Position numbers and translations under genes: made by a program
Shown here: positions 13,539-57,347 of the stretch, piece after piece
Layout: each line of letters opens with the position of its first letter
Position numbering within the stretch: the first letter of the stretch is position 1
DNA from: a virus
Lineage: Duplodnaviria; Caudoviricetes
IMG/VR virus record: IMGVR_UViG_3300044614_001923
Strand: one strand, 5' to 3'
DNA: 64,000 nucleotides
The notes under the pieces: model-generated
What the model saw: only the letters and a program-made list of their open reading frames with translations
Told to the model about the DNA's origin: nothing
The model's database searches: none

Positions 13539-16500
13539 TCAATCAAACCTTGAAGACATATTATCCTGCGCTCTTTGAGCAGCAGCACGACGTTTTGCTA
13601 CTTTTTGAGCTGGAGATGCTGGAGCTCCATATTCACCAGCCTTAGGTGGTTTTTTGCCTGGTTCTTTTTTCTTTCCTCTTGGCTGAACTCCCAACCTACC
13701 AGACCCCATGCTCTTCATTACGGATCTCATTACTTGAGATCTTGTATCATTACCACCCATTGTTCCACCTTTTACAGATGGTTTTCCAGTTTTGTAGTCC
13801 TTACCAGTCTCCTTTTCATAACGATTTAATTCACTTACGAACTCTTCACCCATAGCATCCTGCTTACGTTGCTTCTTAGGATTCTTAGTTTTATCTGCAG
13901 AGTAGTTACTATCATCACCCTCAGGGTCTACAGAACTACGATGTCTTGTACTTCTTTCTTCATCATCCAGTTTTGAACGGTTGGACTTTGCCTCATCTGG
14001 AGAATATGTTCTACCACTGTTGTACCATTCTTTACCTACATGACCTCTCTTCTTAGCATCGGCAGAGGCTTCTCTACGCTTGAGTTTTCTGCGGTTTGCT
14101 TTGAAGTCCTTCATAGTCATACCTTCTTCAATTTCAAATTCAACCTCTTCCATTTCCATTGGAAGTTTTCCTTGCTTTTGCAGCGCCAATTCTTGCCTCT
14201 GAAGCATTTGCTTCTTCTGGATCATCTTCTGACGATTAGCAAGTTGTTGCTTTCTGAGCATTTCCGCTTTCTTGTCTTCAGTACCAGAACCCTGCTGTTG
14301 CTGAGCACCAACTTGCTGTTGCTCTTGATCCATTGCCTCTGCAACTCCACTGAGAGGTAACTTACCTTGTTTTTGCTGAGCAAGTTGTTGACGTTGAAGC
14401 ATTTGCTGCTTTTGAATCATCTTCTGACGATTAGCAATCATTTGCTTTCTTTGAATATCGTCTTGCTTAGCAGTGGTTCCTGATGGAGGAGTTGTTTCTC
14501 TTCCAGGCAGTTGAGTTACTGCTTCACCTAATTTTTTACCGCCGCGGCGGGCAGTGAGAACAGCGGCAATAGCAGCCTTTCTTCTTTCTTCCTTAGTTCT
14601 TCCTGCCAGTTGAGGAGATTGAGAGGAATAGAAGTCTTTGATTGCTGTTCCCATATCAGTTTTAGCAGTGATCTTTTCATCAATTACTGCAACCTCTTCT
14701 TCCATTCTACGAGCAACATTTCTAGCACCTCTAGAAACTGATCTTGCACCACTAGCAATTGCTTTCTTTAGTCCACTCTTAAGAGTGGATCCAATTCTAG
14801 AAAGCATTCCAGATTTCTTACTGTCCTTCTTTGTAGAAGCTGTCTTATACTTAATTCTATAAGAACCAGAGGATTTTGTTCCTTCATCAGAATCATCATC
14901 ACCCTTACCTGCTTGATATCCTGCCTTTGCAGTTGAAGATACTTTTCCAGCAACTTCTTTTGCTTTTTCTCCTGCTGCTGCAGCTGCGGCGCCTGCTTTC
15001 TTAGCAGCACCAACTGCCTTACCTGCGACATATCCAGCACCATAAGCTACTGATTTACCTGCAGATTTAATTCTATCACCAACACTCTTTACAGTATCCT
15101 TTACTTTTTGAGTTTTTTCTGCTCTTCTTTCAGCTGTCTTATTTTTAGCAATTAGTTTTGCATTCTTCTTAGAAGTTGCAGCTGCCAATGCATAACGATC
15201 TTCTTCGACCAATAAACTTTCTAAAGAAATATCTAGAGATTCCGTAAGTACTTCTTGAATCTCATCAATATCATATCCCTCATCAATACACTCATAGAAG
15301 ACTTCAGTTACAACCTCTTCAATTAGATCATTAGAAAGGAAATATAGTTCTGAATTTGTGAGTTCTTCAAGAACATGTTCAAACTCTTCACCTCTAACAA
15401 GTCTAGCAGCAAGTCTGGATGCTCCACTTACTCCAGAAGCAAATCCTTTAGCAACAGTAGATGCTCCCTTTGCTGCCTTACCAATTGTCTTCCCAGTTTC
15501 ACGAGCAGCACTCATTGCTTCTCTATGTCTTTTCATTCCCTTATTTACTTCTCTAGCAATTGCATCAAGAACAGGTCTTTTCTTTGGTTGACTTTCTTTT
15601 GCAGTGTCTACAGCTGCTTTTACTTCTGGTTTTGCTTCAACTTTTCTATTTTTCTTGACAGTAGATGACGGACCTTCAGAATCAATCTTTCTAGTTAAAC
15701 CATACTTCTTTAAAGCAGCGTTAGTTGAACTCTGAACTTTGCTTCCCTTTGGACCCTTAAGAGGTGCTCCTGCTGCTTTCTTCTGTAAGCGTGTTTCTAC
15801 TTTTTCAGTAATTACAGACTCGTTAAGTTCAAAAATAAACTCAACAAAAGCATCTAAACCAAGTTCTTCAATTACAATTTCAACTCCCTCATCATTTAAT
15901 CCCTCATTGAAGAAATATTCTGCTGCTACATTAATAGATTCATTAATAAATTCTTCAGTCAATTCAATAGATTCAATTATAACAGATTCCTCAAGTTTGG
16001 GGGAAAGATTGATGCACTTATCTTTTCCGTTATAATTATTGACTTTTTTTTCTTTTACTTGATTTTTTTTTTGAATCTCAATATCATCAGATACTACTTC
16101 ACGAAGATCTTCTCTCCAGTTTGAGAATCCCTCTTCAACCTTACCTTTTCTATTTGACATCGCATTGCCAATTGCTTTGCGGCGCTTCAAAAGATATTGG
16201 TCATTTTTATCTTTTTTCGCTGGAATTCCGTCATTATCAATATCACCTTTAGAATCTTCTTTACCTACTGGATCAAGTCCCTTACCAGAGGTAACTTTTG
16301 CAGTTTGACTACCTTTTTTTGCTTCTCCTTCATAAGGAGAACCATACTGAGTCATTTCAACTGAAGAAATATTTTTATTTGCTCTCAGTTGATTAATCTT
16401 TTCTCTGGTTGCCATACGAACATATGACTTACCAGTAAGTCTATCAGTTACACGTACTTGATACTTCTTAGTTTCTACTTCTTCTTTAACTGGGGTAGAT

Positions 16501-16829
16501 CCACCTCCTCCACCAGCAGGACCAATTCCAAGTTTTTCTTTAACTGCTTTCTTTTCAACAGCATTCATTGAAGTATTTGACATGTACTGATTGAATGCTT
16601 GCTCTAGAGGAACATCCTCTCTTCTTGCTCTATATCTAATATCATAAACTGCTTGGCGTACTCTCTTCATTTCACCTTCTTCACCACCGCCAGATGGAGC
16701 AGCACCTCCTTTCTTTTCTGGTCCAGATGGACTCGCTGGTGCTGATGCAGATGCCTTTCCAAGCTGTGGTTTAAACACCTCCTCAACGTAAATAGAAGAG
16801 ATGTCATTAAAAATATTATTGGTTGTCAT
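13539..16829 (-). CDS. 1096-aa modular protein with alternating basic and acidic blocks; putative capsid-internal precursor
   Basis: Late promoter ATAAATA at 16863-16869; repeated [LIV]xE|[AG] junctions; modules shared with the 489-aa protein. Confidence 0.8.
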   Translation of the reverse strand: MTTNNIFNDISSIYVEEVFKPQLGKASASAPASPSGPEKKGGAAPSGGGEEGEMKRVRQAVYDIRYRARREDVPLEQAFNQYMSNTSMNAVEKKAVKEKLGIGPAGGGGGSTPVKEEVETKKYQVRVTDRLTGKSYVRMATREKINQLRANKNISSVEMTQYGSPYEGEAKKGSQTAKVTSGKGLDPVGKEDSKGDIDNDGIPAKKDKNDQYLLKRRKAIGNAMSNRKGKVEEGFSNWREDLREVVSDDIEIQKKNQVKEKKVNNYNGKDKCINLSPKLEESVIIESIELTEEFINESINVAAEYFFNEGLNDEGVEIVIEELGLDAFVEFIFELNESVITEKVETRLQKKAAGAPLKGPKGSKVQSSTNAALKKYGLTRKIDSEGPSSTVKKNRKVEAKPEVKAAVDTAKESQPKKRPVLDAIAREVNKGMKRHREAMSAARETGKTIGKAAKGASTVAKGFASGVSGASRLAARLVRGEEFEHVLEELTNSELYFLSNDLIEEVVTEVFYECIDEGYDIDEIQEVLTESLDISLESLLVEEDRYALAAATSKKNAKLIAKNKTAERRAEKTQKVKDTVKSVGDRIKSAGKSVAYGAGYVAGKAVGAAKKAGAAAAAAGEKAKEVAGKVSSTAKAGYQAGKGDDDSDEGTKSSGSYRIKYKTASTKKDSKKSGMLSRIGSTLKSGLKKAIASGARSVSRGARNVARRMEEEVAVIDEKITAKTDMGTAIKDFYSSQSPQLAGRTKEERRKAAIAAVLTARRGGKKLGEAVTQLPGRETTPPSGTTAKQDDIQRKQMIANRQKMIQKQQMLQRQQLAQQKQGKLPLSGVAEAMDQEQQQVGAQQQQGSGTEDKKAEMLRKQQLANRQKMIQKKQMLQRQELALQKQGKLPMEMEEVEFEIEEGMTMKDFKANRRKLKRREASADAKKRGHVGKEWYNSGRTYSPDEAKSNRSKLDDEERSTRHRSSVDPEGDDSNYSADKTKNPKKQRKQDAMGEEFVSELNRYEKETGKDYKTGKPSVKGGTMGGNDTRSQVMRSVMKSMGSGRLGVQPRGKKKEPGKKPPKAGEYGAPASPAQKVAKRRAAAQRAQDNMSSRFD
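14158..14452 (-). repeat. Internal duplication of an about 33-aa Gln-rich module
   Basis: RKQMIANRQKMIQKQQMLQRQQLAQQKQGKLPL vs RKQQLANRQKMIQKKQMLQRQELALQKQGKLPM; also recognisable at DNA level. Confidence 0.85.
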
Positions 16830-16845: not shown

Positions 16846-18111
16846 CTATTTCTTCTTATACTTATTTATGAAATTCTTAATTTCTTTTGTTCCCGTCATT
16901 TTCATTGTATATTCACGATATGCATCCGTTCCAACTTCTCTTTGGTCGGCAGGAACTCCAGATTTGTTAGTAAATCCACTTTGAATATTTCTTGTTTGAG
17001 GGACAAATGCTCCGTATGATACGGGTTTATGATCCTCTTTATCTGCTGCTTTTTTAGATTCCACCACATCTTTAATCCAACATTTAAACATAATACTATC
17101 TTCAGTAACGCAAATCAAATAATTTGTTCCTCTACGAATAATACGTCCAACTAGTCCAGTATTAAGATTTTCAACAATATCTCCAATTCTAAAAATGTTT
17201 TCTTGGATATAATTTTCACGAAGGTTTTTCCAATCCAACTTAGGAGCAATTTCCCAAAGATTCCATCCCTCTTTAATATTCATTGCAGCACGAATGGTAT
17301 TATAGAGTTCTTTTGCTTGTTTCTCATTGAATGTGGAAGGAACTCCTTTTCTAAAGGTTTTAAAATCTCCTTCTGCTGCGGCCTTTCTTTGCTTAGATGC
17401 AGACATACCAGACACATCATCTTCAGAATCAGGATCCCTTTCCCCAGCAGAACGAACTTCTAAATTATCAAATTGATAGAGTTTACCATTATAATTATTG
17501 GAAAGTTTTTCAAACTCATTAACTCTATCAGCACCACCTACAATTCTTACGTTAGTATATCCATCCATATGTGCCTTTTTAAGAACATCGAAGATGGTAC
17601 GATTTGCCTGATCATTTATAATTCTTTCACTATGCTGAGGAAACATTTGCCTCATAACAGAAACTTTAGTATCAGCATCTAATGGATTCTTTTTCTTATC
17701 CTGACTTCTTGATGGAACAATAATATAATCACCATCATCAGAAGATGTTGCTACGGTATTTAAAAGTTTTTCATGTCCAGTTGTTGGTGGATTGAACCGC
17801 CCAAAAGCAATAGTTAAAGTTCCTTTTGTTTTTGGTACTGGAGGTGGACCTTCCACTTGAGGTTCTTGCTGAGACTGAACTTCTTTTGGAATTTCTTGAT
17901 CCTTTACTTTTTTTTCTTGAGGAGGGTCTTGCTTTCCAATTTTTTGATTTTTATTATAAAACTTAAGTTTTCCACCCTCAGTCTTCGCTGTAAATTCTCC
18001 ATTTTTATCGTACCATCCACCATGCCCATCTCCAGTTAAACCGAGACGAGATGCTTGCTGAACAGCAAGAGACTTTGATGCTTCAGAAAGAAATTGTAAA
18101 AAACTTTTCAT
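16846..18111 (-). CDS. Cytidylyltransferase-like (HIGH-superfamily) nucleotidyltransferase
   Basis: TIAFGRFNPPTTGHEKLL, VGADRV, MSASKQR motifs; ATG at 18111 (MKSFLQFLSEA) follows late promoter 18132-18138. Confidence 0.88.
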   Translation of the reverse strand: MKSFLQFLSEASKSLAVQQASRLGLTGDGHGGWYDKNGEFTAKTEGGKLKFYNKNQKIGKQDPPQEKKVKDQEIPKEVQSQQEPQVEGPPPVPKTKGTLTIAFGRFNPPTTGHEKLLNTVATSSDDGDYIIVPSRSQDKKKNPLDADTKVSVMRQMFPQHSERIINDQANRTIFDVLKKAHMDGYTNVRIVGGADRVNEFEKLSNNYNGKLYQFDNLEVRSAGERDPDSEDDVSGMSASKQRKAAAEGDFKTFRKGVPSTFNEKQAKELYNTIRAAMNIKEGWNLWEIAPKLDWKNLRENYIQENIFRIGDIVENLNTGLVGRIIRRGTNYLICVTEDSIMFKCWIKDVVESKKAADKEDHKPVSYGAFVPQTRNIQSGFTNKSGVPADQREVGTDAYREYTMKMTGTKEIKNFINKYKKK

Positions 18112-18140
18112 TTTTTGTGTTGATATACTTATATTTATGT

Positions 18141-19661
18141 TTATGTTCCGCCCCAAAGTCTGGGATCGATTCCTAGAGCATCTTGTAAATTACCAAGATT
18201 GTTTTTACTTCTTAACTTCATCCAATTTCCTTTCAACTTACTCCAATTATTTTTCGACATAATATCAAAATATAGACGAGTAGATCCTCTACTTGGATTA
18301 ACATTTTCTTTAGAAGTAACATAGACAACTTGCTCATTCAAAATTGCTCTATCATAAAACATCTCTTTAAAATTTAAAGAATTATTTGGTTCTGATGCTT
18401 TAGTAAATCCCTTTTCAAAAAATAAACTTAATGCTCCAACATTGGGTCTATAGTCTCTTCTACTACTTCTATTAATAACCGTATTGGTTAAAAGATCATT
18501 TAACTGTGGCATTACTTGTCCAACAGAATTTCTATTTTTAAGTAAAGAAGTTAAATCATCATTTTGAGACAGAGATGCTTTTTTAATTTTAGATGGATCA
18601 CAATTTTTAAAATAATTAACTAAAGTTGTTATTGCAGCATTTTTATTTCCAGAATATCTATGATGATCTAAGGCATAACGACATATTTCTCTAAATTGAC
18701 TTTCTTTAGATTTTGCAAGTATAGCAGCGGAGTACAATGGATATAAAGAAGATGTTTTTGATGCTTGAGGAGATGCTTTAGTAACTCCCCCCAGCATAGT
18801 GTAATATTCTCCAATATTTCCCTGACCCTTTGACCTTTTCCATTGATTTATTTCTCTAACGTTAGAAAATAAATCTTTTGGTTTTACGACATTTGGTGAT
18901 GAACCAAATGCAGCATTCTTAACAGATACTTTTATTGAATTTCCCTCAACCTGCCTAACGCCTGGAGGAACTAGAAAATAATCAACTAAAGGATAGTTTG
19001 CACCTACTGGAAAATAAACAGTCCACTTTGCAACTCCTCCTGGAATGTTTTCAACTCCAATCATTTTTCTTAGAGATGCCGATCCCGATAATCTTTTAAG
19101 TAAAGCATAAGCGGAAAATATTTCTATAGCTTCACTACCAAATTCTAAAATTCCATGAAAAGTAGTTGATAAATTTTTATCAAATTCGTCAAATGCTTTA
19201 GATACAACTGAGTTCCATATTACACTATCCTCACCAATATATTTCTTAACTGCATCTTTAATAGCTGCTGGAGTCAGTCTTTTTCCCTCAATACCAATAT
19301 CTTTTGGCTTCATCTTCCTGACTCTTTCAGATGAAGAAGTTCCTGGTTTTAAGACCAACCCATATGTTTTAGTTTGATCTACAAGAATTCCAACTTCACT
19401 TGATATTCTATTTCCAGATATTGTTGCTGACTTTTTCTTTGAAAAAACATAATTCTCAAGATATAGATTTTCTAAAATTCCATCAAATATAACTTGTCTC
19501 ACACTTCTACTTCTTGGCATATTTGAAACTTCATAAACAAATGTGCCATTTTCATTTATTTCAACAATACTATCTTCAGTGACGGAAATACTCCCCATAT
19601 TATTCTGAGATAAGACAGAACTTAAGATTGCAAAAATATTACTCTTTATAGAGTTTGCCAT
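18141..19661 (-). CDS. 506-aa orphan protein, possible PD-(D/E)xK-type nuclease
   Basis: Long AT-rich ORF; EFGSEAIE...FPVGANYPLVDY...KVSVK...NVVKPKD pattern; CTAAATA at 19687-19693. Confidence 0.55.
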   Translation of the reverse strand: MANSIKSNIFAILSSVLSQNNMGSISVTEDSIVEINENGTFVYEVSNMPRSRSVRQVIFDGILENLYLENYVFSKKKSATISGNRISSEVGILVDQTKTYGLVLKPGTSSSERVRKMKPKDIGIEGKRLTPAAIKDAVKKYIGEDSVIWNSVVSKAFDEFDKNLSTTFHGILEFGSEAIEIFSAYALLKRLSGSASLRKMIGVENIPGGVAKWTVYFPVGANYPLVDYFLVPPGVRQVEGNSIKVSVKNAAFGSSPNVVKPKDLFSNVREINQWKRSKGQGNIGEYYTMLGGVTKASPQASKTSSLYPLYSAAILAKSKESQFREICRYALDHHRYSGNKNAAITTLVNYFKNCDPSKIKKASLSQNDDLTSLLKNRNSVGQVMPQLNDLLTNTVINRSSRRDYRPNVGALSLFFEKGFTKASEPNNSLNFKEMFYDRAILNEQVVYVTSKENVNPSRGSTRLYFDIMSKNNWSKLKGNWMKLRSKNNLGNLQDALGIDPRLWGGT

Positions 19662-19695
19662 AAAACTAAAAGGTTACGCTTTTAGATATTTAGAA

Positions 19696-19768
19696 TGGAG
19701 AATAGGAGACTCGAACTCCTGACACCCGCCTTGCAAAGGCGATGCTCTACCAACTGAGCTAATTCCCC
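19696..19768 (-). tRNA. trnA: tRNA-Ala(TGC)
   Basis: GGGGAAT/ATTCTCC-A with G3:U70, loop TT-TGC-AA. Confidence 0.96.
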
Positions 19769-19830
19769 AGATGGATTAAGTGTGATATATCTCATAAGGA
19801 CATAACAGGGACTTAACCTCTATCTTATAT

Positions 19831-19888: not shown

Positions 19889-21358
19889 TCAGTGCTTTTC
19901 GTCACCACTAGGTGGTTTTGCCTTTGCCATTCTAGTTCCAGCAGCATCGCCAAACTTATCTCTTAGAGAAATTTTTTCTCTTCTTGGAGATACATATCCA
20001 ACTCCAGGAACTACACCTGTCTTACCAGCATCTCTTGCAGCATTTCTTGCTTCTGCTCTTGCTGCTGCTCTCTTACGATTTTTCTCGTAAGAACTCATTG
20101 CCTCATCAAGCCACGCTTCAAACTGTTCCTTAGCAATCTCACCCATTGCTTTTTGCTTACGGAGTTTCTTAGGATTCTTGGTTACGCCGCCAGGACCCTC
20201 TGAAGGATAGTCATGATCTTGAGTTCTTCCAACACCATGAACAGCACCAGATCTTGCTCTTTCTCTATCATTGGCAGTCATTTCACCTCTTCCGTAATGA
20301 GGACCACCTCTAAGAGATCTCCACATATGCTTCTCAGCGGACTTCACTTTTTTAGTTTTTTCTCCTCTTTGAGAATACTCAGATGCTGGTTTATTAGTTC
20401 TCTTACTAACAAGTTTTCCGTATGCTGCAGATGCTTTTGGAGTTTTACCGTAGGAACCTTCTGCTTCATCAAGATAAAACTCATACATATCATCCCAGGT
20501 GTAATCAGAAAGGTCATAACCTTCTTCTACCAGAGCATCTACCCAGAACTCAAACTCTTCTTTATTAATTTCTGCTGCTCTTCTTGCTGCTTTGCTTCCC
20601 TTTCCAACATTAGAATATGATTTTGGCCAATTGGAACCTGCTACTTTGCGATTGGGAGGAGTTCCCAGAAGTCCATCTTTATTAGAGCGTCTGATGTGCT
20701 TGATTAATGCAACATTATCACCTTGACCTGCTTTTGCTCTACCAGAAGCATGAGTACGGTTAGCAATCATTTCTGCTGCTTTTGCTTTACCCTTTTCACT
20801 GGTAATTGCTTCATCAAGTTCTTCCTCACCGAGAATAATATTAATCGCTTCCTCATCAATCAGATTTGCCATCATCCACTCAGCATCTTCAAAAGTTTCT
20901 GCATATCCCTCAACATAGAGAAACTCAAGAATAGTATCAAACAGATCAAAAGACTCATCTCCCATATTGAGTTGCTTTTTCTCATTAGGAGTCAATGCTG
21001 CAGATCCTCTCTGTGCTCCTCTTGCTGCCTGCTTTGCTTTTACTGCAGGGTCTGTAGACTTATGGGCATAACCATGTAGACCAGGACTTGAAGAAGTAGT
21101 CTTACGGAAATCTCCTCTTTGCTTTCTAGCAAGATTTTCCCTTGCTTTTTGCTTTTCACTATCTCCGTAAGTTGGTTTGTCTGCAAGTTTAGTTGCTCTA
21201 TCTGCTGCTGCACCACCACCAGTTGACTTAGCAATTTTTTGGCGAATAGGTGCCTCATCATAACCACGCTTTGCCATCGCAGTTGCTTCATCAACTTCTT
21301 GAGGAGTATGCACTTCAGCATACGCTTCCATTATGCCCTTAAAATCTTTGATGTCCAT
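19889..21358 (-). CDS. 489-aa modular basic/acidic protein; putative capsid-internal precursor
   Basis: Four [VL]DE|A junctions separate basic blocks from acidic linkers; TATAAATA at 21378-21385. Confidence 0.8.
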   Translation of the reverse strand: MDIKDFKGIMEAYAEVHTPQEVDEATAMAKRGYDEAPIRQKIAKSTGGGAAADRATKLADKPTYGDSEKQKARENLARKQRGDFRKTTSSSPGLHGYAHKSTDPAVKAKQAARGAQRGSAALTPNEKKQLNMGDESFDLFDTILEFLYVEGYAETFEDAEWMMANLIDEEAINIILGEEELDEAITSEKGKAKAAEMIANRTHASGRAKAGQGDNVALIKHIRRSNKDGLLGTPPNRKVAGSNWPKSYSNVGKGSKAARRAAEINKEEFEFWVDALVEEGYDLSDYTWDDMYEFYLDEAEGSYGKTPKASAAYGKLVSKRTNKPASEYSQRGEKTKKVKSAEKHMWRSLRGGPHYGRGEMTANDRERARSGAVHGVGRTQDHDYPSEGPGGVTKNPKKLRKQKAMGEIAKEQFEAWLDEAMSSYEKNRKRAAARAEARNAARDAGKTGVVPGVGYVSPRREKISLRDKFGDAAGTRMAKAKPPSGDEKH

Positions 21359-47672: not shown

Positions 47673-48326
47673 TTATAGTGAATTTAAGAAGTCGTTGAAA
47701 AGATTAATCTTATTTTCTTCAAGTTGTTTTTGATCTACTAAACTATTGATTTTTTTATATGCTTGAGAAGCATACTTCTCACGAAGAATACCTCCATCCC
47801 ATACCCATTCTTTACCTTCCATGATTCCCTGAACAAAAGCATCAGGTGCAGAAGGATCTGCAACAATATCTGCTGCAGTTGCAAGCATAAAGTCTTCACC
47901 GACTTCTTTATATCCTTCTCTATGATTTTCTTTCAGAGATCCGATTCCCCGAGAAGATACGCCAAGAGTAACTCCGTCCTTGAGAAGTGACTCTGCAATT
48001 TTACCCATTGGAGTGGATAGAATTTGTGCTTTACCGATAAAATTATTTCCTTCACGATAGAGTTCAATAATTTTATGTGATACTCTATCCAGATTTATAG
48101 TTGGACCATCAGGATGTCCAAGTTCACCAAGAGCACGTCCTTTTTCAACATATTGTTCAGTATAACGCTTTACTTCACGTTCCATAATGGACATAGGATA
48201 CATCCTTCCATTACGGTTAACACATTCTGCTTGAAGAAAAGGACCCTTAACGAAAAGTTTTTGTTGTTTTCCAGTTCCTTCTGTAAGAACTTCTACCTTT
48301 TCGATTTCTTCTCTGATTAGTTTCAT
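47673..48326 (-). CDS. gp21: Prohead protease
   Basis: NRNGRMY, ALGELGHP, GVSSRGIGS, DIVADPSAP. Confidence 0.97.
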   Translation of the reverse strand: MKLIREEIEKVEVLTEGTGKQQKLFVKGPFLQAECVNRNGRMYPMSIMEREVKRYTEQYVEKGRALGELGHPDGPTINLDRVSHKIIELYREGNNFIGKAQILSTPMGKIAESLLKDGVTLGVSSRGIGSLKENHREGYKEVGEDFMLATAADIVADPSAPDAFVQGIMEGKEWVWDGGILREKYASQAYKKINSLVDQKQLEENKINLFNDFLNSL

Positions 48327-57029: not shown

Positions 57030-57347
57030 TTAAATCCACTCTAATTTTCCTGGATGATATCGTTTTGCGTTTTGAATATTAAAATTCTTTTCTTCCGCAG
57101 GATAGATATTATGGACAATTGCTCCAGGATAGTTTCCTTGAAGTTGTTCTCCTAATTCCTGTTTAGATGGAACTCCTGTTTTTGTGACAAGTTCAAGTCT
57201 ATATATGCTGCCTTGCCACATAACATCGGCAACGTAACTTTCCCCCACTTGCTGAGGTTGTTCTGGTTGTGAGTTGATGTAGAGATTTCCGTTGAAATCT
57301 CCTGAGATGTTTACTGACTCAGATAGAAACTGTTTGAAACTTTTCAT
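57030..57347 (-). CDS. Hypothetical protein with a CTS-like N-terminus (MKSFKQFLSE)
   Basis: ATG at 57347; 105 aa. Confidence 0.75.
   Translation of the reverse strand: MKSFKQFLSESVNISGDFNGNLYINSQPEQPQQVGESYVADVMWQGSIYRLELVTKTGVPSKQELGEQLQGNYPGAIVHNIYPAEEKNFNIQNAKRYHPGKLEWI

Follow-up and report, generated by a model that had tools for sequence, protein, structure and literature searches.

Is the nucleotidyltransferase that marine cyanomyoviruses encode as a core gene carried within their heads and, if so, what brings it there? This question is raised by a gene in a 64,000-nucleotide stretch of the IMG/VR virus record IMGVR_UViG_3300044614_001923 (hereafter the window; all coordinates refer to it unless stated otherwise). 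The window is part of a 90,244-base contig rated 47% complete, and the source phage is a T4-like cyanomyovirus. The gene occupies positions 16846-18111 on the minus strand and codes for a protein of 421 amino acids (aa), herein called the transferase. Its sequence begins MKSFLQFLSEASKSL, giving the N-terminus MKSFLQFLSE↓AS, where the arrow marks a candidate cleavage site. In the open reading frame (ORF) listing, the frame reaches further 5' to a TTG codon at 18156 (436 aa). We place the start at the ATG at 18111, because homologues begin there and a promoter-like motif falls inside the TTG extension. A preliminary description, made from the letters of the window alone, had reported the MKSFLQFLSE start, a motif 20 nucleotides (nt) upstream and an FGRFNPPTTGH core, all of which are present, and had proposed that the enzyme is packaged and injected.

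In our opinion, the transferase is rather probably a head-internal cargo, loaded by means of a T4-type capsid targeting sequence (CTS) and cut after Glu10. The gene would be transcribed from its own late-type promoter, and the decapeptide MKSFLQFLSE would act as the T4 CTS does, docking the protein on the prohead scaffolding core. The gp21-type protease of the phage would then cut after Glu10 (L-S-E↓A), which would yield an N-terminal peptide starting from Ala11: ASKSLAVQQASR in this phage and AAESGASVQAK in Synechococcus phage S-SCSM1. Finally, the mature enzyme would remain in the head alongside the charged proteins of adjoining genes and exit with the DNA at infection.

The N-terminal leader and its T4 counterparts

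The leader, a putative CTS, comprises residues 1-10 (18082..18111, minus strand) and carries an L-x-E site directly before Ala11. In an AlphaFold2 model built from a 108-row alignment (mean predicted local distance difference test score, pLDDT, of 84), it forms part of a helix spanning residues 4-12 with a pLDDT of ~73. The T4 CTS, which the preliminary description had given as MKTYQEFIAE, was verified in the T4 record and in PMC8442874. According to a review (PMC9026906), targeting depends on positions 4 and 7 of this sequence and processing on positions 8 and 10; the transferase leader has residues of the same kind at all four (F4, F7, L8 and E10). When the N-terminal 60 aa were compared with T4 IPIII by BLASTP, residues 1-12 only were aligned, MKSFLQFLSEAS with MKTYQEFIAEAS (6/12 identical, 11/12 positive, E 0.006). 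We also scanned genomes for M-K-x-[FY]-x-x-F-[FLIVM]-x-E, written as a degenerate DNA pattern, using the reversed pattern as a control, which gave zero matches in the scanned genomes. In S-SM1 and Syn9, the leader pattern matched once each, in both cases in the transferase gene, and in S-SKS1 it matched twice, in the transferase gene and in that of a 105-aa homologue of a second leader-bearing ORF (see below). T4 itself returned exactly three matches: ipII, ipIII and gp61.1.

T4 IPII, IPIII and Alt are head-internal proteins: a CTS loads them, gp21 cuts them, and they are ejected along with the DNA. The transferase has in common with them the N-terminal decapeptide pattern MK[ST][FY]xxF[LI]xE↓A[S], with the (L/I)-x-E site closing at residue 10. 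The likeness extends to the presence of a gp21-type protease on the contig and a late-promoter-like motif at the gene and, in the case of Alt, to the cargo being an enzyme. Unlike the T4 internal proteins, however, the transferase is unrelated in sequence past residue 12, and the exact leader is found on one or two genes per cyanophage genome only. Moreover, cleavage and ejection are known for the T4 internal proteins and predicted for the transferase.

The remaining T4 match, gp61.1 (NC_000866.4, 18966-19130, minus strand), is a 54-aa hypothetical protein adjoining the primase gene 61, and its N-terminus, MKTFKEFIKE↓D, conforms to the CTS pattern. It sits in the gene 41-61 interval, where cyanophages hold the cluster with the leader-bearing transferase. 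Judged by this pattern, T4 gp61.1 may be a CTS-bearing peptide that has escaped notice, or a remnant.

The proposal of packaging, according to the preliminary description, depends on homologues keeping the leader, and they do keep it. Among close homologues (~70% identity), ~115 of 121 carry it in the form MK[SN]F[FL]QFL[SK]E[AST]. Orthologues at 39-57% identity retain it as well, namely those of Syn9 (gp184, MKKFSAFLSE↓AE), S-SM1 (MKKFSAFLNE↓AE), S-SSM7 (KSFGQFLTE↓AV), P-TIM40 (MRFLDFIKE↓AK) and S-SCSM1. Even in a family alignment of 108 sequences, with a mean column identity of 13%, the majority consensus still opens with MKSFxQFLxE. Of 84 rows of the alignment, 62 have K at position 2 and 73 have F at position 4; F, Y or L stands at position 7 in 74 rows, and E at position 10 in 58. 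A leader-like motif was found within the first 16 residues of 101 of the 137 N-terminally complete representatives (74%), as opposed to 1.6% of internal control windows. The leader match is thus far beyond chance.

The distance between the leader and the catalytic core varies from 10 to ~120 residues across the family. In long-form relatives (500-1100 aa), ~10 residues separate the leader from strand 1 of the core, and in cyanophages an 85-residue insert lies between the two. The leader also keeps the extreme N-terminus in relatives whose HIGH domain comes after a Pol-beta nucleotidyltransferase, with or without an AAA_33 P-loop kinase ahead of the latter; the short enzyme forms of P-HM1 and of the jumbo phage GAP32 have no leader. 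Solved chains of phosphopantetheine adenylyltransferase (PPAT) align from residue 1 or 2 to model residues 96-98, and the canonical fold therefore does without the leader helix. Overall, the leader is a positional, separable element and not part of the fold.

We would also like to comment on some unusual arrangements of the family. In the metagenomic relatives P0209, P0203, P0199 and P0162, the HIGH-motif domain comes after other enzyme domains: an AAA_33/Zeta-like P-loop kinase with a Pol-beta nucleotidyltransferase, a Pol-beta nucleotidyltransferase alone, or a PAP2 phosphatase. P0209, P0203 and P0199 begin with a CTS-like leader; the PAP2-fused P0162 (MGKLFSDFRISLTE) fails the leader motif. 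In P-HM1, the gene is split in two: the first codes for a 188-aa transferase core that has no leader, and the second, after it, carries the SH3-like domain. The latter begins MKSLADFTKKSKVAE↓A and has TATAAATA upstream.

A second leader, MKSFKQFLSE↓SV, opens a 105-aa ORF (57030..57347, minus strand; phrog_1742) in the structural module, between virion-protein genes and two genes upstream of the large terminase gene. This ORF is unrelated to the transferase. A looser leader pattern found no additional carriers in five cyanophage genomes; therefore, the MKSFLQFLSE-type tag is not a general cargo label in cyanophages.

Virion detection, predicted prohead processing and expression

Judged by its sequence, the transferase is a member of the cyanophage core family T4-GC190 (phrog_395), annotated as "cytitidyltransferase" or "NMNAT". 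It matched phrog_395 ("cytidyltransferase") with an E-value of 4.5e-108, and 563 phage records, chiefly of Synechococcus and Prochlorococcus myoviruses, were matched in all; in tblastn, 379 phage records cover at least 80% of the query. The match coordinates in S-SM1, S-SSM5 and S-SSM7 are those of the T4-GC190 "Cytitidyltransferase" entries in Sullivan et al. 2010 (PMC3037559). The T4-GC190 proteins S-SM1 SSM1_190, Syn9 gp184, S-SCSM1 ORF91 and S-CREM2 ORF154 are orthologous to the transferase over their full length, at 39-69% identity. Their domain order, leader and syntenic cluster, including a tRNA-Ala gene, are all as here. As a member of the family, the transferase shows no substantive difference from them; the publications searched give the virion detection, not the CTS-like leader. 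Among isolates, Synechococcus phage S-SKS1 comes nearest (69% protein identity), a kinship visible at the protein level only, as megablast of the gene against phage records produced no match. The family is large: a full scan of 1.84 billion representatives led to 4,342 clusters at 50% identity, and related genes occur in the pelagiphage HTVC008M and in Methylophilales phages. The neighborhood is conserved, too, the gene lying between mazG/gp41 and gp61/nrdA, beside genes for charged virion proteins.

T4-GC190 has been described as a cyanophage core gene whose product is an experimentally determined virion protein; mass spectrometry of purified S-SM1 gave it 25 peptide counts, whereas the portal had 18 and gp6 likewise 25 (PMC3037559). 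By the same technique, the orthologue ORF91 ("NMNAT") was detected in virions of S-SCSM1 (Wang et al. 2022, PMC9602691), in which ORF89-93 are all flagged as virion proteins, and ORF154 was detected in those of S-CREM2 (PMC10665884). ORF91 is a true orthologue of the transferase: it is 52% identical over its full length, begins MKSFLQFLKEAA (MKSFLQFLKE↓AA) and has GAATAAATAA upstream. The gene order in S-SCSM1 is also as here, i.e., charged protein, tRNA-Ala, protein, transferase, charged protein. The proposal of a packaged enzyme is thus borne out as far as the presence of orthologues in the virions of S-SM1, S-SCSM1 and S-CREM2 is concerned; the targeting by the leader, the cleavage site, the location in the head rather than in the tail and the ejection are what we infer beyond that.

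The packaged enzyme is not a new idea, since the virion association of T4-GC190 is already in print. Taken together, PMC3037559, PMC9602691, PMC10665884 and PMC12801897 had put forward virion carriage as well as a possible NAD+ role, the last of them tying the gene to NAD+ counter-defence by citation only. In the literature searched, "capsid targeting" is not tied to cyanophage virion proteins or to the transferase, one T4 review naming cyanophages in passing, and the leader as a loading mechanism for T4-GC190 appears to be undescribed there.

The presumed processing enzyme, a gp21-type prohead protease (Peptidase_S77), is encoded at 47673..48326 (minus strand) beside the scaffold, major head and portal genes. 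The scaffold, encoded in the same phage, is of the gp22 type and contains nine [LIV]xE↓[AGS] sites, as would be expected if the T4 cleavage specificity has been kept.

The preliminary description had also assigned a late promoter to the gene. A late-promoter-like CATAAATA is indeed present at 18132..18139 (minus strand), with 20 nt between the motif and the ATG, much as at the structural genes of the contig. We counted NATAAATA motifs on the coding strand of the contig, taking as positioned those lying 0-60 nt upstream of a start: this was the case for 16 of the 25, with ~1.7 expected from the fraction of sequence so placed. Such motifs precede the sheath, portal and scaffold genes, as well as four genes of the transferase cluster (those for the 489-aa, 421-aa, 1096-aa and 255-aa proteins). 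Sigma-70-like promoters were not enriched, and no minus-strand terminator was found near the transferase gene. The motif makes late expression of the gene plausible.

The enzyme and the competing readings

Behind the leader, residues 11-55 (17947..18081, minus strand) form a mini-domain of one helix and three short strands with the conserved GDGHGGWYD..G.F.AKT..GKL (pLDDT 85-93 for residues 15-51). It is kept in cyanophage orthologues and missing in long-form relatives, where the leader abuts the core. A low-complexity disordered linker (residues 56-95; 17827..17946, minus strand; pLDDT 48-71), variable among homologues, leads to the HIGH-motif nucleotidyltransferase core (residues 96-281; 17269..17826, minus strand; pLDDT ~97). 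Herein, FGRFNPPTTGH occupies residues 103-113 and GMSASKQR residues 235-242. The former motif, which the preliminary description placed in the catalytic core, lies inside a match to PF01467 (CTP_transf_like; residues 101-202, E 8.8e-8, 32.9 bits vs a cut-off of 21). G104, R105, P108, P109, G112, H113, S237, S239 and R242 are each conserved in at least 90% of the sequences. The (T/H)xGH and SxSxxR-type motifs on a Rossmann core place the protein in the HIGH superfamily, and the fold is confirmed in the model. Given these near-invariant motifs, the transferase is very probably an active nucleotidyltransferase.

The core is followed by a small SH3-like (Tudor/KOW-type) beta-barrel with a preceding helix (residues 283-351; 17059..17265, minus strand), predicted with a pLDDT of 87 when the domain was modeled alone; in the full-length model, the five-stranded barrel of residues 312-351 reaches ~95. 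Its best matches are Tudor, KOW and SH3 barrels (Z 5.7-7.7), along with phrog_4808, and the modeled barrel is of a generic SH3/Tudor/KOW fold. The C-terminal tail (residues 352-421; 16849..17058, minus strand; low pLDDT) consists of a variable stretch and then the conserved SGVPADQR.VGTDAYR...FINKYKK. A V-V-E↓S site at residues 351/352 (~17056-17061) falls at the exact end of the barrel, ahead of the variable stretch and the conserved tail, and many orthologues align over residues 1-351 only. C-terminal trimming at E351↓S352, as reported for T4 Alt, is conceivable by analogy.

In fold, the core resembles bacterial PPAT (CoaD) and the nicotinamide mononucleotide adenylyltransferases (NMNAT; NadD, NadM, NadR and archaeal forms). 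It shares with them the compact HIGH-type Rossmann fold (Z 12.7-14.2 over ~150-160 residues) and the conserved (T/H)xGH and SxSxxR-type motifs. The highest Z, 14.2, was obtained with PPAT (152 residues, root-mean-square deviation 2.8), followed by NadD/NadM at 13.0 and archaeal NMNAT at 12.7; the top match of Foldseek was a NadM structure, and a sequence search of the PDB with the transferase gave no match. Unlike these enzymes, with which it is 14-20% identical only, the transferase has the family motifs PSRSQDxKKNPL and SAGERDPD, as well as the added leader, mini-domain and C-terminal SH3-like barrel. All equivalog models of NCBIfam are also far under their cut-offs, both those for NMNAT (TIGR01526, 24.5 vs 341 bits; TIGR00482, 22.5 vs 112; TIGR01527, 13.9 vs 181) and that for PPAT (TIGR01510, CoaD, 19 vs 103.3 bits). 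The structural comparison suggested in the preliminary description therefore upholds a HIGH-type fold, but not an NMNAT-specific identity; since the PPAT and NMNAT fold scores are effectively tied, they do not single out an acceptor substrate.

Several observations weigh against a head-internal, processed cargo. T4-GC190 is missing from the older proteomes of Syn9 and S-PM2 (PMC3037559), and the protein is not among the 23 proteins of S-SCSM2R (PMC12801897). The S-CREM2 authors warn that abundant late proteins may co-purify with virions (PMC10665884). The Syn9 and S-SM1 orthologues have no ATAAATA motif within 45 nt upstream, and the 105-aa leader-bearing homologue carries no virion-protein flag in S-SCSM1. 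The co-purification issue and the three virions in which the protein went undetected would suit an ordinary cytoplasmic metabolic enzyme, i.e., the product of an NMNAT-/PPAT-like auxiliary metabolic gene that is abundant late and co-purifies, and whose N-terminal helix serves folding, oligomerisation or membrane association. The position of the gene in the replication-gene region, from mazG/gp41 to gp61, in Syn9 and S-SKS1 points the same way. We nevertheless find such an enzyme unlikely: the protein was detected independently in the virions of at least three phages, with S-SM1 counts that resemble those of 12-copy structural proteins, and the products of adjoining genes are virion proteins as well. 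Moreover, the leader does not depend on which domain comes after it and is missing from short forms, and its DNA pattern retrieves T4 IPII and IPIII.

Two further readings accept packaging and differ in what the enzyme would do. The preliminary description gave NAD+ salvage against NAD+-depleting defences as an example; on this reading, the injected enzyme would rebuild NAD+ from NMN and ATP. The literature, too, labels the orthologues NMNAT and speculates on NAD+ (PMC10665884, PMC9602691, PMC12801897). The best NCBIfam matches, weak as they are, come from the NadR and NadD models, and NadM tops the Foldseek search. However, every NMNAT model remains far under its cut-off, the Z-score of PPAT is equal or slightly better, and the motif of the transferase is TxGH, not HxGH. 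TxGH is the form present in E. coli PPAT, and NMNAT alone cannot rebuild NAD+ from ADP-ribose and nicotinamide, the products of NADases. Since there is also no Nampt gene on the 90-kb fragment (47% complete), we see no specific support for NAD+ salvage and consider it quite improbable. Alternatively, the packaged enzyme might partner the ligase-superfamily domain DUF6267 and end-processing domains in nucleic-acid repair or cofactor recycling, for example by regenerating an adenylyl donor for the ligase at the start of infection. DUF6267, with its KxDG-type motif, is encoded directly upstream of the transferase, often overlapping it, in Syn9, S-SM1, P-HM1 and P-TIM40, and members of the transferase family are fused to a Pol-beta nucleotidyltransferase, an AAA_33 P-loop kinase or a PAP2 phosphatase. 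On the other hand, DUF6267 is unlinked to the transferase in S-SKS1 and S-SCSM1 and was not found on the 90-kb fragment, 47% complete as it is, and we know of no HIGH-superfamily enzyme acting on polynucleotides. Such a partnership is, in our view, very doubtful.

Adjoining genes and meaning for the family

The gene downstream of the transferase (13539..16829, minus strand) codes for a charged protein of 1096 aa, related to the virion proteins S-SCSM1 ORF92 and S-SM1 GC1454. Its own NATAAATA motif (16863..16870, minus strand) lies inside the transferase codons TTC ATA AAT AAG, read as F-I-N-K, and is likewise embedded in the transferase 3' codons in S-SCSM1, Syn9 and S-SM1. The 1096-aa protein was also considered as a counterpart of the C-terminal extension of the long-form relatives; one weak acidic block only was found (E 0.001), and the relation is not established.

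The gene directly upstream (18141-19661, minus strand) codes for a 506-aa protein that matches nothing in Pfam or PHROG and lacks [LIV]xE↓[AGS] sites. This protein is unrelated to Syn9 gp183/DUF6267 and to S-SCSM1 ORF90, the latter of which occupies the same position. Further upstream, a tRNA-Ala(UGC) gene (19695-19769, minus strand) lies between two genes of the virion cluster, in the same place as in S-SCSM1. It is followed by the gene for a 489-aa charged protein (19889..21358, minus strand), which has TATAAATA 19 nt upstream and is related to the virion protein S-SCSM1 ORF89. This protein bears a second type of leader, MDIKDFKGIME↓AYAEV, and ORF89, a virion protein by mass spectrometry, begins MDSKTFNSLSE↓AYAAV. 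Each of the two proteins has an [LI]xE↓A site around residue 11, and each gene is preceded by a TATAAATA-type motif.

A broader scenario can be offered tentatively, and we would not regard it as likely at the current point. MKxFxxFLxE might be an ancient portable capsid-loading tag, common to T4 and the marine T4-like phages of the cyanophage, pelagiphage and Methylophilales groups. The main marine cargo of this tag would be a widespread enzyme family that is injected and acts before phage gene expression. Such early action might serve a co-delivered ligase-like enzyme, whose adenylylated cofactor would be supplied or recycled, or it might counter host defence. If this were true, the product of a cyanophage core gene that has long carried a metabolic annotation would be an ejected effector.

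Marine cyanomyoviruses, of which T4-GC190 is a core gene, count among the most abundant viruses of the ocean. Several groups saw the T4-GC190 product in virions without having a mechanism and had to allow for contamination; a conserved T4-type CTS would supply that mechanism. In this case, the packaging question would become a simple experiment, and the decapeptide would be a candidate tag with which foreign proteins could be loaded into the heads of cyanophages. The enzyme itself would shift from an "auxiliary metabolic gene" to a "delivered effector", which would change how its role in early infection is studied.

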